Shown here piece after piece: positions 1,978 to 4,933 of a stretch of DNA of 10,240 nucleotides. Numbering within the stretch: the first letter of the stretch is position 1; each line of letters starts with the position of its first letter. A program made the position numbers and the translations under genes. The notes below the pieces were generated by a model that was not told where the DNA came from, ran no database searches, and was given only the letters and a program-made list of their open reading frames with translations. This DNA is from a virus (taxonomy: Duplodnaviria; Heunggongvirae; Uroviricota; Caudoviricetes): IMG/VR virus record IMGVR_UViG_2529292726_000022, positions 1 through 10,240 of that record; one strand, written 5' to 3'.

Positions 1978-3078
1978 ATGAGCGAGTCCAAATCGCCGGA
2001 TGCCCTGAGAGCAATGGTAGCCGGTACGCTGGCTAATTTTCAGCACCCAACCCTGAAACACAACCTGACTACGCTTAAAGCGTTACACCATGTTGCGTTG
2101 ATGGATGACACACTGCATGTCGAACTAATCATGCCTTTCGTGTGGAATAAGCCTTTTGAAGACCTGAAAGAGCAATGTAGTGGTGATCTGCTCCGTATCA
2201 CTGGCGCAAAGGCTATTGACTGGAAGCTGTCGTACAACATTGCCACGCTTAAGCGCGTCAAAAACCAACCAGGCATTAATGGCGTTAAGAACATTATCGC
2301 CGTCAGCTCAGGCAAGGGCGGCGTGGGTAAATCCTCCACGGCGGTAAACCTGGCACTGGCGTTGGCTGCTGAAGGTGCGAAAGTTGGTATTTTGGATGCC
2401 GATATCTATGGTCCATCAATTCCAACCATGCTGGGCGCGGAAAACCAACGTCCAACCTCACCTGACGGTACTCACATGGCACCTATCATGTCTCATGGCC
2501 TGGCAACCAACTCTATTGGTTATCTGGTCACCGACGACAATGCAATGGTGTGGCGTGGACCGATGGCCAGCAAGGCGCTGATGCAGATGTTGCAGGAAAC
2601 TCTATGGCCTGATCTGGACTATCTCGTTCTCGATATGCCGCCGGGCACTGGTGATATTCAGTTGACGCTGGCGCAGAACATTCCTGTAACTGGTGCGGTT
2701 GTGGTAACTACGCCGCAAGACATCGCGCTGATCGATGCGAAGAAAGGCATTGTGATGTTCGAAAAAGTCGAAGTGCCGGTACTGGGTATCGTCGAAAACA
2801 TGAGTGTGCATATTTGCAGTAACTGCGGTCATCACGAGCCAATTTTTGGCACCGGTGGCGCACAGAAACTGGCCGAGAAATACAACACGCAGTTGTTAGG
2901 CCAAATGCCACTTCATATCTCTCTTCGTGAAGATCTGGATAACGGAACACCAACCGTTATTAGTCGTCCAGATAGCGAATTTACAGCTATTTATCGTGAC
3001 CTCGCAGATCGCGTTGCTGCCCAAATGTATTGGCAAGGTGAAGTAATACCTGGCGAAATCGCATTCCGCGCAGTGTGA
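1978..3078 (+). CDS. apbC: Fe-S cluster carrier ATPase Mrp/ApbC (NBP35 family)
   Basis: 366-aa ORF with SD; deviant Walker A SSGKGGVGKSST, CxxC motif (CSNCGH), and the MSESKSPDALRAMVAGTLANFQHP... N-terminus typical of enterobacterial Mrp; conserved divergent arrangement with metG. Confidence 0.95.
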   Translation: MSESKSPDALRAMVAGTLANFQHPTLKHNLTTLKALHHVALMDDTLHVELIMPFVWNKPFEDLKEQCSGDLLRITGAKAIDWKLSYNIATLKRVKNQPGINGVKNIIAVSSGKGGVGKSSTAVNLALALAAEGAKVGILDADIYGPSIPTMLGAENQRPTSPDGTHMAPIMSHGLATNSIGYLVTDDNAMVWRGPMASKALMQMLQETLWPDLDYLVLDMPPGTGDIQLTLAQNIPVTGAVVVTTPQDIALIDAKKGIVMFEKVEVPVLGIVENMSVHICSNCGHHEPIFGTGGAQKLAEKYNTQLLGQMPLHISLREDLDNGTPTVISRPDSEFTAIYRDLADRVAAQMYWQGEVIPGEIAFRAV

Positions 3079-3115: not shown

Positions 3116-3505
3116 CTACATCACGGGACAATCATCAAACTCGCCACTTCTTGCGTCGTTGATAATGTGAGTGATCACACCAAACACGGCATTGCTGCCC
3201 GTGCATGCATCGTCATCCTTTGGCAATGCTTCCTTCTTACCGGTTCTTAAATCCTCCAGATGCTGACGTGGGTACTTCCGGTATCTTTTTACGCGATATT
3301 CCCCATCCAGAGCGCATACAAGCAGAGAACCATCAACCGGGGTAAGTGAGGAATCGACCACCAGCAATGCACCCTGTAATATTCCCTCACGATGATGACT
3401 ATCAGCTGCCCTCATGAAGTAGGTCGCTGAAGGATGTCTAATTATCTGCTGATCAAGAGAAATACGGCTCTCAGCATAATCCGCCGCAGGAGAAGGGAAG
3501 CCCAT
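3116..3505 (-). CDS. UmuD-family S24 peptidase, natively N-terminally truncated (UmuD'-like), 129 aa
   Basis: Starts MGFPSPAADYAESRISLDQQIIRHPSATYF..., co-linear with UmuD from the residue after its Cys24-Gly25 self-cleavage site. Ser of the Ser-Lys dyad retained (AADSH vs UmuD SGDSM), Lys retained (VKRYR vs VKKLQ). In-frame TAA 12 nt upstream of the ATG (complement of 3518-3520) rules out an N-terminal extension. SD AAGAGG precedes ATG. No umuC-like gene follows. Confidence 0.8.
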   Translation of the reverse strand: MGFPSPAADYAESRISLDQQIIRHPSATYFMRAADSHHREGILQGALLVVDSSLTPVDGSLLVCALDGEYRVKRYRKYPRQHLEDLRTGKKEALPKDDDACTGSNAVFGVITHIINDARSGEFDDCPVM

Positions 3506-3521
3506 AATACTCGCCTCTTAA

Positions 3522-3541
3522 CACTGTATATACATACAGTA
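3522..3541 (-). promoter_or_regulatory. LexA operator (SOS box)
   Basis: Minus-strand TACTGTATGTATATACAGTG: CTGT-N8-ACAG palindrome matching the consensus TACTGTATATATATACAGTA at 17/20, about 16 nt upstream of the UmuD'-like start codon, the same geometry as the E. coli umuDC operator. Confidence 0.8.
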
Positions 3542-3566: not shown

Positions 3567-3725
3567 CTCTATCTCTTAAAAAAGATGTTAATAAGATGCT
3601 AACTATTGAAAGGCATAAATATATACAATTCCAACAAACGTTATTTTTAACAAATTTTTTCTCTCCGTTGACTTTTGCGAAAGCCTTGTCTGGCCTAAAT
3701 TGCGCGGAAGCTACTTTTTCCTTAC

Positions 3726-3750
3726 AGAGTTATCCACAGAGTTATGCACT
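3726..3750 (+). repeat. Tandem 12-bp repeat containing DnaA-box-like 9-mers
   Basis: agagTTATCCAC / agagTTATGCAC in direct tandem (3726-3737, 3738-3749). TTATCCACA at 3730-3738 is a perfect DnaA box consensus; TTATGCACT at 3742-3750 matches TTATNCACA at 8/9. Confidence 0.3.
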
Positions 3751-3836
3751 TGCATGTATAACCTATACACACTATCTTAATTCGCAAGACACTGATGTTG
3801 CGGTATTGAAGGTTCATTGGGTTAAAAATAGACATT

Positions 3837-3867
3837 AAAAAGCCCAGTTGACTAGGCTGGGCTTTTT
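3837..3867. terminator. Bidirectional intrinsic terminator hairpin
   Basis: AAAAAGCCCAG-(9-nt loop)-CTGGGCTTTTT: 11-bp perfect inverted repeat with an A-tract 5' and T-tract 3', so it is U-tract-flanked on both strands. No confident CDS ends at it on either strand. Confidence 0.65.
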
Positions 3868-3900
3868 AAAAGGAAACAGAGTTTGCGGCTCTGTTCCTGA

Positions 3901-3920
3901 GCCATAAGTATCTGGCGACT
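3901..3920 (+). repeat. Direct repeat copy 1 (gccaTAAGTATCTGGCGACT)
   Basis: 20-bp sequence repeated at 4074-4093 with one mismatch (16-bp identical core TAAGTATCTGGCGACT at 3905-3920 and 4078-4093). Confidence 0.7.
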
Positions 3921-4073
3921 GAATTAAGATTAACCGAATGTACTGGATTCATCAAGAAACGTTGAGTGGTCATACCAGGTAATAATGACCATTTACTAAA
4001 CATCGTTGTTCTCAAAGAAGATTTAAGTCCAGGTTTTTGGTGACTCTAAAACCTTACCTTAACTCGAAATCGT

Positions 4074-4093
4074 GCCGTAAGTATCTGGCGACT
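4074..4093 (+). repeat. Direct repeat copy 2 (gccgTAAGTATCTGGCGACT)
   Basis: Second copy, 173 bp downstream of copy 1; preceded by AAATCGTGCCG (4066-4076), which recurs inside the small ORF at 4189-4199. Confidence 0.7.
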
Positions 4094-4167
4094 ACAGATA
4101 TTGCAACTGCAAAGGCAAGCCCAAAGGTATTTGCAGCTAGGCGCGATAAAACTAAGTGAGGCCTGTT

Positions 4168-4251
4168 ATGGTTAACTTACTGTTCAAAATCGTGCCGCCG
4201 ATGTTCGCGATTATCAAAGCGATCATTGAGTACGTAAACCAGCGTCCATAA
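4168..4251 (+). CDS. Candidate small hydrophobic protein, 27 aa (MVNLLFKIVPPMFAIIKAIIEYVNQRP)
   Basis: ATG at 4168 preceded by SD-like GTGAGG with 6-nt spacing; stop TAA 4249-4251; terminator hairpin 14 nt downstream. Peptide is mostly hydrophobic with a charged C-terminal tail. Too short for the ORF track. Confidence 0.3.
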   Translation: MVNLLFKIVPPMFAIIKAIIEYVNQRP

Positions 4252-4264
4252 CGCTAGTTGCTAC

Positions 4265-4297
4265 AGGCCCCATCAAGAGCATGGGGCCTCTTTATCG
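4265..4297 (+). terminator. Hairpin (aggcccca-N9-tggggcct) plus CTTTAT tract downstream of small ORF
   Basis: 8-bp GC-rich perfect stem followed by a short T-rich tract on the plus strand. On the minus strand it sits 18 nt past the stop of the operon's last gene (4307) but has no U-tract in that direction. Confidence 0.5.
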
Positions 4298-4306
4298 TAC
4301 TATTGC

Positions 4307-4933
4307 TTATTTTTTACGGACTGAGTTGTTCACTGCTCTGGCAATCTTCTCCCGCAATTGCTGCGTTCCGTGGTACTGAACCGCAATATCTCTCAACTCG
4401 TTCACCAGTTCTCGAATCTGGTGATCTTTAAGCTCATTATTTGGGTGATTGGTAACAACTCTGGTTAATTCACCCTTGTCTTTTGCTCTTACGTATGCAG
4501 CTCTTGTGCATTCGACCCATGTATTACCGCCTACATTAACTTCGTAGATTAGGCTGGACTTATCTGTCAATTCGGAACAAATACGGGCCGTGGTCTGGCA
4601 ACTAGAGCATTCGCAGTTATCGCGGAAACCGTGATCTACCGGTCGAGAAAGAGGTTTAACTTTTTCATCCAACTTCATCACAGCATCGTGATAAGCGTTC
4701 CAGCCGTCATCTTTACCAAGTTGATAAATCTCTGAAGGCTCCATGTAGTCTATATCGCAACCTTCTTCATCCGATCTATCTGGTCGCTTCCCTGGTAATC
4801 GCTCATAAAAACGATTTCTGTCTCGACGTTCGGCTCTCAGTGCTAACGCAAGAAGTTGCTCAAGCGAGGTATTTGCACCAGCAATAATTTCATTGAGAAT
4901 ATCTTCTGTGAGATCTTTCGCTACCGTGCTCAT
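4307..4933 (-). CDS. Hypothetical protein, 208 aa (last gene of operon)
   Basis: Long minus-strand ORF; ATG (complement 4931-4933) overlaps the stop of the upstream gene (ATGA); contains a Cys cluster (CECSSCQ). No recognisable family by eye. Confidence 0.7.
   Translation of the reverse strand: MSTVAKDLTEDILNEIIAGANTSLEQLLALALRAERRDRNRFYERLPGKRPDRSDEEGCDIDYMEPSEIYQLGKDDGWNAYHDAVMKLDEKVKPLSRPVDHGFRDNCECSSCQTTARICSELTDKSSLIYEVNVGGNTWVECTRAAYVRAKDKGELTRVVTNHPNNELKDHQIRELVNELRDIAVQYHGTQQLREKIARAVNNSVRKK

Follow-up and report, generated by a model that had tools for sequence, protein, structure and literature searches.

A direct repeat upstream of a 27-codon gene in an SSU5/pLF82-type phage-plasmid as the likely pairing interface of a type I toxin–antitoxin-like module

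In the type I systems tisB/IstR-1 and zorO/OrzO, a divergently transcribed, trans-acting small RNA (sRNA) pairs through its 5' end with about 18-21 nucleotides (nt) located far upstream of the ribosome-binding site. The toxin messages have a long structured 5' untranslated region (UTR) and a sequestered Shine-Dalgarno sequence, and repression is proposed to proceed through a standby site and RNase III. The hok/sok system consists of cis-encoded overlapping genes with a mok leader open reading frame (ORF) and a toxin of about 50 amino acid residues. Another system, dinQ/agrB, is a type I toxin–antitoxin of Escherichia coli K-12 (Weel-Sneve 2013; Kristiansen 2016, PMC5066626), and the Dql family has been defined by likeness to the dinQ 5' UTR together with the DinQ signature residues (PMC5066626). 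The system dqlB/agrB (DinQ-like B) is an experimentally validated plasmid addiction module on pOXA-48 and, according to its authors, is often overlooked owing to its size (PMC12365149). It is against these systems that we compare a locus at positions 3830-4300 of the window (the whole analysed stretch of 10,240 nt from the viral record IMGVR_UViG_2529292726_000022), in which two copies of a 20-base-pair (bp) direct repeat stand upstream of an ORF of 27 codons.

We consider it likely that a divergent trans-acting antisense sRNA pairs with its target through these two repeats, as part of a type I toxin–antitoxin-like module. Two 20-bp direct repeats, one difference and a distance of 173 bp had been reported in an earlier note on this DNA, and all of this was borne out: copy 1, GCCATAAGTATCTGGCGACT (3901-3920), and copy 2, GCCGTAAGTATCTGGCGACT (4074-4093), are identical in 19 of 20 positions with a start-to-start spacing of 173. 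They have in common an exact core of 16 nt, TAAGTATCTGGCGACT, for which the window contains no third match even with up to three mismatches allowed. The number of such matches expected is 0.04, and two matches were found in none of 200 dinucleotide shuffles. The core is also present twice, with no further repeat copies and no iteron array, in the whole 108,379-bp genome of Escherichia phage Cyrano. The repeat is without palindromic symmetry. An RNA read off the minus strand carries the reverse complement of copy 1 and is therefore complementary to a plus-strand RNA with copy 2, so that antisense partners transcribed from opposite strands appear as a direct repeat on one DNA strand. The note had offered a duplicated sRNA/leader module as one reading; the repeats do belong to a predicted sRNA and a leader, and instead of a duplication they would be complementary partners from opposite strands.

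Homologues were collected in two ways, with the repeats excluded from both queries. The leader motif AACTGCAAAGG-N14-TTTGCAGC, which lies outside the repeats, was searched in plasmid, viral and genome collections and gave 45 real loci (25 unique) from E. coli, Citrobacter, Kluyvera and Enterobacter; its matches in genome contigs were mostly due to chance, the real ones being from Citrobacter, Kluyvera and one mis-binned metagenome-assembled genome. A tblastn search with the peptides gave seven more loci, on conjugative IncF plasmids of Kosakonia, Atlantibacter, Cronobacter, Enterobacter and Klebsiella. The repeat pair is retained at the same place in all 52 loci, with the copies 152-179 nt apart, and is far better conserved than the DNA between the copies. 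The sequence of the repeat itself changes between lineages, across genera, and always in both copies: TAAGTATCTGGCGAC; AATGTATCTGGCGAC; TAAAACACTGGCGAC; GTATGTGTCTGCCAGC; GTTGTTAACCGGCGAC; ...CTGGCAGC. The version in the window is TAAGTATCTGGCGACT and that in most loci is AATGTATCTGGCGACT; the others are CGTGCCGTAAAACACTGGCGAC in L032, where the copies are identical in 22 of 22 positions, ...CTGGCAGC... in L007, L022, L082, L083 and L086, CGCCGTATGTGTCTGCCAGC in L084 and L085, and CGTGC(C/T)GTTGTTAACCGGCGAC in L087.

To represent the intermolecular helix, copy 2 was joined through a linker to the reverse-complemented copy 1. In 17 distinct loci, 98.5% of the 340 cells pair, and 12 of the 20 pairs are altered on both sides, a number matched by none of 500 shuffles; controls in which the register was slid were 27-36% paired. 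Since the loci are related by descent, these pairing and shuffle figures are no probabilities, and at least five independent replacements of the repeat are visible. The residual differences between the copies have a direction, with A in copy 1 and G in copy 2, or C in copy 1 and T in copy 2. For a minus-strand sRNA and a plus-strand messenger RNA (mRNA) these residuals are G·U wobbles and 96.9% of the cells pair, while with the strands exchanged they turn into A·C mismatches and 88.5% of the cells pair. Six columns speak for the former arrangement and one for the latter. The similarity between the copies stops exactly at 3920, which is the predicted transcription start of the sRNA. Pairing may extend more weakly to about position 3897 in copy 1, and perhaps to 4070 in copy 2. 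A 14/16 match to the target core (TACGTATATGGCGACT) is found elsewhere in the Cyrano genome (OV696614.1 45788-45803, L090), where it lies on the sense strand of the cobalamin synthetase gene CYRAN_48. Chance would give about 0.06 sites of this kind; this one could be a secondary target of the sRNA and is probably a coincidence.

The candidate antitoxin sRNA is well structured by prediction. The 87-nt minus-strand RNA from 3920 to 3834 folds with -34 kcal/mol (z = -5.6), which was equalled by none of 200 shuffles, and the consensus fold of 18 distinct homologues has 22 pairs with compensatory double changes in five of them. In the internal hairpin, the outer stem co-varies between loci around a conserved GAG/CUC inner stem and a conserved loop. 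The terminator hairpin contains a 13-nt perfect inverted repeat and compensatory stem changes, and a terminator scan of the minus strand matched it; on that strand the hairpin with its U-run occupies 3867-3837. The predicted +1 is the A at 3920. The geometry of the promoter is kept in 20 of 20 loci, where the -10 element is always TAA(G/T)(C/A)T (TAAKMT), the -35 element is TTGA(A/T)G in 16 of the 20, the two are separated by 17-18 nt of variable sequence, and +1 is fixed 6 nt past the -10 element. Between the divergent promoters lies a palindrome (3967-3991), the arms of which co-vary in L004 (AGTCAT/ATGACT); judged by its sequence, it may serve as an operator or form a hairpin in a longer toxin leader. 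The corresponding site in other lineages reads GGAACC-N8-GGTTCC.

The leader of the toxin mRNA is conserved as a structure too. Its consensus has 28 pairs, of which nine show compensation, among them pairs of the target stem-loop and of a long-range helix that joins TCGTGCC (4070-4076) to GGCGCGA (4140-4146); compensatory changes are found in three leader helices. The target stem-loop is preserved by compensation as CACUG...CAGUG in L032, GUUAAC...GUUAAC in L087 and GUGUC...GACAC in L084. A CA-rich single-stranded tract separates the first conserved hairpin (4031-4054) from copy 2. The 5' end of the mRNA is probably situated slightly upstream of 4031. Candidates for the toxin promoter, with a -35 element like TT(G/T)AC and a T-rich -10 element about 10-40 nt upstream of 4031, align poorly within the window's own lineage, and none of them was assigned.

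It had also been noted that AAATCGTGCCG immediately precedes copy 2 and recurs inside the small ORF at 4189-4199. The recurrence is real; the copy in the ORF is at 4187-4197, and the upstream copy (4067-4077) does not precede copy 2, as it overlaps its first 4 nt. On the folding models, the two copies are plausibly alternative partners of one leader element, GGCGCGAU. The upstream AUCGUGCC (4069-4076) overlaps the 5' end of the sRNA site and shares GCC with copy 2. A structural switch, in which binding of the sRNA would free GGCGCGAU for the ORF copy of AUCGUGCC and close the ribosome-binding site, is not supported. The two states of the leader are about 2-2.6 kcal/mol apart, the nascent RNA takes the upstream pairing, and the Shine-Dalgarno sequence lies in its own local hairpin in both states; the pairing between UTR and ORF is strong in some loci, absent in others and not conserved across all lineages.

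The proposed mechanism is as follows. A sigma-70-type promoter on the minus strand would start an sRNA of about 85 nt at 3920, with copy 1 in reverse complement as its first 20-24 nt. The plus strand would give an mRNA with a structured leader of at least about 140 nt, the 27-codon hydrophobic ORF and a terminator. By analogy with tisB/IstR-1, zorO/OrzO and dinQ/agrB, the 5' tail of the sRNA would begin to pair at the loop of the target stem-loop and then form a duplex of 20-24 bp with copy 2. The duplex may prevent the peptide from being translated because it covers an upstream standby region, where ribosomes load, next to the CA-rich tract, because it becomes a substrate for RNase III, or for both reasons. 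Upon loss of the element, the short-lived sRNA would decay first, the membrane peptide would be made, and retention of the phage-plasmid would thereby be favoured (addiction).

The small ORF, encoding the putative toxin, is 27 codons long in 19 of 19 type-A loci, the type to which the window belongs. Its variable columns are distributed over the three codon positions as 13/3/20, so that third positions vary most, and the replacements are conservative and hydrophobic; the ORF is thus under coding constraint. The window peptide has a grand average of hydropathy (GRAVY) of 0.86 and a net charge of +1.5. Searches of the peptides against Pfam, NCBIfam and PHROG profiles gave no match. A second, paralogous peptide type (type B), for example MQMLLLFLKLAHPVAVIIMTLLGYWKDR, was found, and both types have the pattern K-x(2,3)-(P/H/Q)-P ... 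(E/D)(Y/F)xxxR. Many loci are bicistronic, with type B (MQMLLLFLKLAHPV...) and, after a gap of about 25 nt, a type-A-like peptide (MVNLLMKLLPPLV...): L006, L007, L022, L052, L081, L084, L085 and L087 (in the last at 701-787 and 811-891). The window encodes type A alone, without type B. The minus-strand operon that ends at 4307 reads towards the toxin gene, and no U-tail follows the hairpin at 4265-4289 when it is read that way; read-through could therefore cover the toxin ORF with a long cis-antisense RNA, besides the trans-acting sRNA.

The same antisense pairing might instead control a small membrane protein that is not toxic and has a physiological role, in transport, in a phage function or in superinfection. 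We regard this as unlikely, and it is the alternative that survives best. A hydrophobicity below that of the classic pore-forming type I toxins would agree with it, as would the two paralogous peptides in tandem at many loci, which is unusual for type I toxins, and the Cyrano paper names only type II toxin–antitoxins among the morons. Against these points, the architecture is identical to that of validated toxin systems (PMC12365149), the module adjoins maintenance genes on plasmids and phage-plasmids, and a tight, lineage-specific matching of sRNA and target is typical of cases where leaky expression is harmful.

Operator repeats were another suggestion of the earlier note. The repeats would then be DNA sites, operators or iteron-like, bound by a protein involved in co-regulation of the divergent promoters, in replication or in partition. 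Two nearly identical sites do flank the divergent promoter region, DnaA boxes and replication/partition genes are nearby, and the co-variation could mirror co-evolution with such a protein. This explanation appears very unlikely to us, since a DNA-operator model predicts neither the strand asymmetry of the mismatches nor a boundary at +1. The differences between the copies are biased to transitions in the sole direction that yields G·U pairs, the similarity ends at the predicted transcription start, and copy 2 lies inside a co-varying RNA stem-loop. The 108-kb genome has two copies and not the three or more of an array, the repeat lacks dyad symmetry, the two copies vary freely together in at least six sequence versions across the homologous modules, and no conserved candidate protein adjoins them. 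The last alternative, that the repeats are functionless relics of recombination or duplication (att-like sites or a target-site duplication) around a small insertion, which would indeed leave short direct repeats about 170 bp apart, is hardly credible and its att-like form is refuted, because the search for strains missing the segment between the repeats gave no locus with a single copy or a lost interval among the 52 homologous loci and 115 E. coli genomes, the repeats outconserve the intervening DNA and co-vary across genera, and the 153-nt interval carries the conserved sRNA promoter.

Several points weigh against a toxin–antitoxin module interpretation and should be set beside the evidence in its favour. 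Both transcripts and their ends are predictions, and the toxicity of the peptide and its neutralisation by the sRNA are proposed by analogy. A strict consensus scan found neither the sRNA promoter, which it misses because the -10 element scores 3/6, nor the toxin promoter, and no convincing location for the latter was found. Peptides and sRNA failed every family model. The GRAVY values of the peptides (0.4-1.1) are lower than those of DinQ, TisB and ZorO (1.4-1.8), though they are comparable to that of LdrD (0.69). In equilibrium folding of 20 loci, blocking the sRNA site left the accessibility of the Shine-Dalgarno sequence and AUG unchanged (0.415 versus 0.411), so that the mode of repression rests on analogy. 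The phylogenetic relatedness of the loci means that the shuffle statistics overstate independence, and two co-varying DNA copies could in principle also stem from a co-evolving DNA-binding protein.

The source region belongs to an SSU5/pLF82-type phage-plasmid of E. coli. It is 99.5% identical to Escherichia phage Cyrano (OV696614.1), the pLF82 phage-plasmid, and 100% identical to many non-mobilizable E. coli plasmids of about 110 kb of the SSU5/pHCM2/pLF82 type. The module (3830-4300) is present in 115 of 5,426 complete E. coli genomes (about 2%), at 106 places on plasmids and 10 on chromosomes, and in every record among the matches listed it is without an annotated feature. Literature searches with the peptide strings, and for type I systems on SSU5/pLF82/Cyrano elements, found no description of it. 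The neighbours are of the maintenance type, with a ParA/MinD-like ATPase in the window and RepB, PHD and VapC at other loci. The coordinates of all features are collected in Table 1.

Table 1. Features of the module and of the genes around it in the window
Feature	Position	Strand	Remarks
Candidate antitoxin sRNA, about 85 nt	3920 to about 3834	minus	5' single-stranded tail, one hairpin and Rho-independent terminator; ends inferred
Copy 1, first 20 nt of the sRNA (AGUCGCCAGAUACUUAUGGC)	3901-3920	minus	proposed pairing region
sRNA internal hairpin	3872-3897	minus	RNA: GGAACAGAG[CCGCAAA]CUCUGUUUCC
Bidirectional terminator hairpin (AAAAAGCCCAG...CUGGGCUUUUU)	about 3835-3869	both	ends sRNA (minus) and 80-residue ORF (plus)
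sRNA promoter, inferred	3927-3955	minus	-35 TTGATG (3955-3950), 17-nt spacer, -10 TAATCT (3932-3927), 6 nt to +1
Palindrome TGGTCAT-N11-ATGACCA, lineage-specific	3967-3991		spacer between divergent promoters; read from sequence
First conserved leader hairpin AGGUUUU...AAAACCU	4031-4054	plus	compensatory changes at pairs 7/30 and 12/25
Copy 2, proposed sRNA target site	4074-4093	plus	5' UTR, 74 nt upstream of ATG
Target stem-loop GUAUCUG[GCGACUA]CAGAUAU	4081-4101	plus	part of copy 2 in loop; in minimum-free-energy and centroid structures
Conserved UTR hairpin CUGCAAA...UUUGCAG	4107-4136	plus	served as repeat-independent search motif
UTR element GGCGCGAU	4140-4147	plus	can pair with AUCGUGCC at 4069-4076 or AUCGUGCC at 4189-4196 in the ORF
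Shine-Dalgarno GAGG	4158-4161	plus	6 nt before ATG; predicted local hairpin with codons 4-6
Small ORF MVNLLFKIVPPMFAIIKAIIEYVNQRP, candidate toxin, 27 residues	4168-4251	plus	ATG 4168; stop ends 4251
Toxin mRNA Rho-independent terminator	4265-4289	plus	9 pairs, 6 G-C, T-rich tail; same place in homologues
ParA/MinD-like ATPase gene	1978-3078		neighbour
S24 LexA/UmuD-like (HumD/UmuD-like) peptidase gene	3116-3505	minus	neighbour
80-residue ORF	3596-3838	plus	full-length phrog_28987 match, E = 1.5e-58; unannotated in Cyrano record
Operon of Ea/DUF551-type phage genes	4307-4933	minus	neighbour; ends at 4307

The 80-residue ORF stops at the bidirectional terminator that it has in common with the sRNA. 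Between this ORF and the divergent S24 peptidase gene is a perfect LexA-box-like palindrome, CTGTATATACATACAG (3524-3539), which suggests control of the peptidase gene, of the ORF or of both by the SOS response, by analogy with humD/lxr in phage P1. Two DnaA-box-like sequences, TTATCCACA (3730-3738) and TTATGCAC (3742-3749), occur in tandem within 3724-3750. The window at 3600-3755 is about 86% identical to the upf91 region of P7 and about 74% to the upfN/upfO region of P1, where the P1 record lists the late promoter LPhot and two DnaA boxes. DnaA-box-like sequences of the TTATCCACA type are also found directly past the sRNA terminator in L026, L056, L070 and L081. Further upstream, the window at 252-1295, with an ORF of 347 residues that has no Pfam match, seems unlike Cyrano (L001 188-2221). 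At about the corresponding position, the Cyrano record has a methionyl-tRNA synthetase gene on the opposite strand. On this comparison of annotations, a variable accessory segment may adjoin the ParA/MinD-like gene, which we offer only as a suggestion.

Phage-plasmids of the SSU5/pLF82 type are common in clinical and animal E. coli, including carriers of CTX-M-15. If the module is an addiction module, it adds to the stable carriage of the phage-plasmids and plasmids that bear it, and it could defeat plasmid curing unless the antitoxin RNA is supplied, as with DqlB/agrB on pOXA-48. Its lineages are a clean natural series of co-varying sRNA/target pairs for the study of antisense specificity, and divergent type I systems can in practice be sought in genomes by their signature, a short direct repeat that precedes a tiny ORF. 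It is possible, and we put it forward only tentatively, with some doubt, that the module represents a distinct, unrecognised type I addiction family of enterobacterial phage-plasmids and IncF plasmids, with an ancestral operon of two peptides (type B, then type A) under one sRNA, and that its interface has split into at least six mutually non-cognate specificity classes acting as addiction-immunity groups. Were this true, co-resident or competing plasmids and phage-plasmids of different groups would be unable to neutralise one another's toxin.

As in type I systems generally, there is a gene for a small (<60 residues) hydrophobic peptide under coding selection and, adjacent to it, a predicted antisense sRNA gene with 20-24 nt of complementarity to the toxin mRNA. 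With hok/sok it would share its probable role, in which an unstable antisense RNA and a small membrane peptide secure the post-segregational retention of a low-copy plasmid. It differs from hok/sok in the trans-encoded sRNA, the non-overlapping genes and the peptide of 27 residues. The pairing of the sRNA 5' end far upstream of the ribosome-binding site corresponds to tisB/IstR-1 and zorO/OrzO, to which there is no sequence relationship, and the control by LexA seen in tisB is absent: a search for CTGT-N8-ACAG with up to one mismatch found no LexA box in 3870-4170, the sole perfect box being that of the neighbouring genes at 3524-3539.

Like dinQ/agrB, the module has, by prediction, a divergent sRNA of about 85 nt with its 5' end complementary to the toxin 5' UTR; the two also share a hydrophobic peptide of 27 residues, Rho-independent terminators on both genes and alternative pairings in the leader. 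As a positive control, the K-12 dinQ/agrB locus shows a 35-nt direct repeat between the agrB 5' end and the dinQ 5' UTR, ending 73 nt before the start codon, where the module has 20-24 nt and 74 nt. Plasmid dqlB/agrB loci show a 23-nt direct repeat with a spacing of 229-245 and an A/G mismatch of the wobble type. The AgrB hairpin resembles that of the module sRNA in its inner stem, GAG/CUC, and its loop of 7 nt, CCRCMAA. However, the module has no nucleotide similarity to dinQ/agrB and no LexA box, it has a single sRNA copy instead of the agrA/agrB pair, and it resides on phage-plasmids and plasmids whereas dinQ/agrB is chromosomal. With dqlB/agrB it has in common the plasmid location, the overlooked or unannotated status, the divergent architecture and the direct-repeat signature, as well as the peptide N-terminus M-x-N-L-L. 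DqlB is without two features of the module peptides, the P-P or H-P motif at their centre and the conserved (E/D)(Y/F)xNxR tail.

Membership of the DinQ/DqlB family was rejected. The NCBIfam models (NF041472, NF041473) gave no match at E <= 10 for seven module peptides, while the controls passed, DqlB with 71.7 and 42 bits (NF041473) and DinQ with 54 bits. Comparison of the module family with DqlB by hhalign gave a probability of 1.9%. A blastn search with the module in distant mode returned no dinQ or dql locus, so that likeness to the dinQ 5' UTR is lacking, and blastn-short against the dinQ and dqlB loci gave chance 9-11-mers only. For the sRNA, the Rfam model AgrB (RF02891, gathering threshold 40) aligns in full length at exactly the position predicted independently, with 27.6 bits (E = 0.28), which is below the threshold; the sRNAs of the homologues gave no AgrB match, and the controls scored 106-108 bits for agrA/agrB and 48-56 bits for dql-linked sRNAs. 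OrzO-P (RF02083, gathering threshold 60) scored 24-34 bits in homologues, driven by the terminator and in a different structural register. Membership of AgrB, OrzO-P and RNAI was rejected, as all matches are under the gathering thresholds, and since the family that matches differs between homologues, the matches reflect a generic sRNA shape. The faint likenesses to DinQ and AgrB (the M-x-N-L-L start, the hairpin and the full-length AgrB alignment) could, going by sequence comparison, indicate either very distant ancestry or convergence. Because the DinQ/DqlB and AgrB/OrzO models failed although their controls passed, the module is best explained as functioning like dinQ/agrB and dqlB/agrB and as forming a separate, previously undescribed family of phage-plasmids and IncF plasmids.

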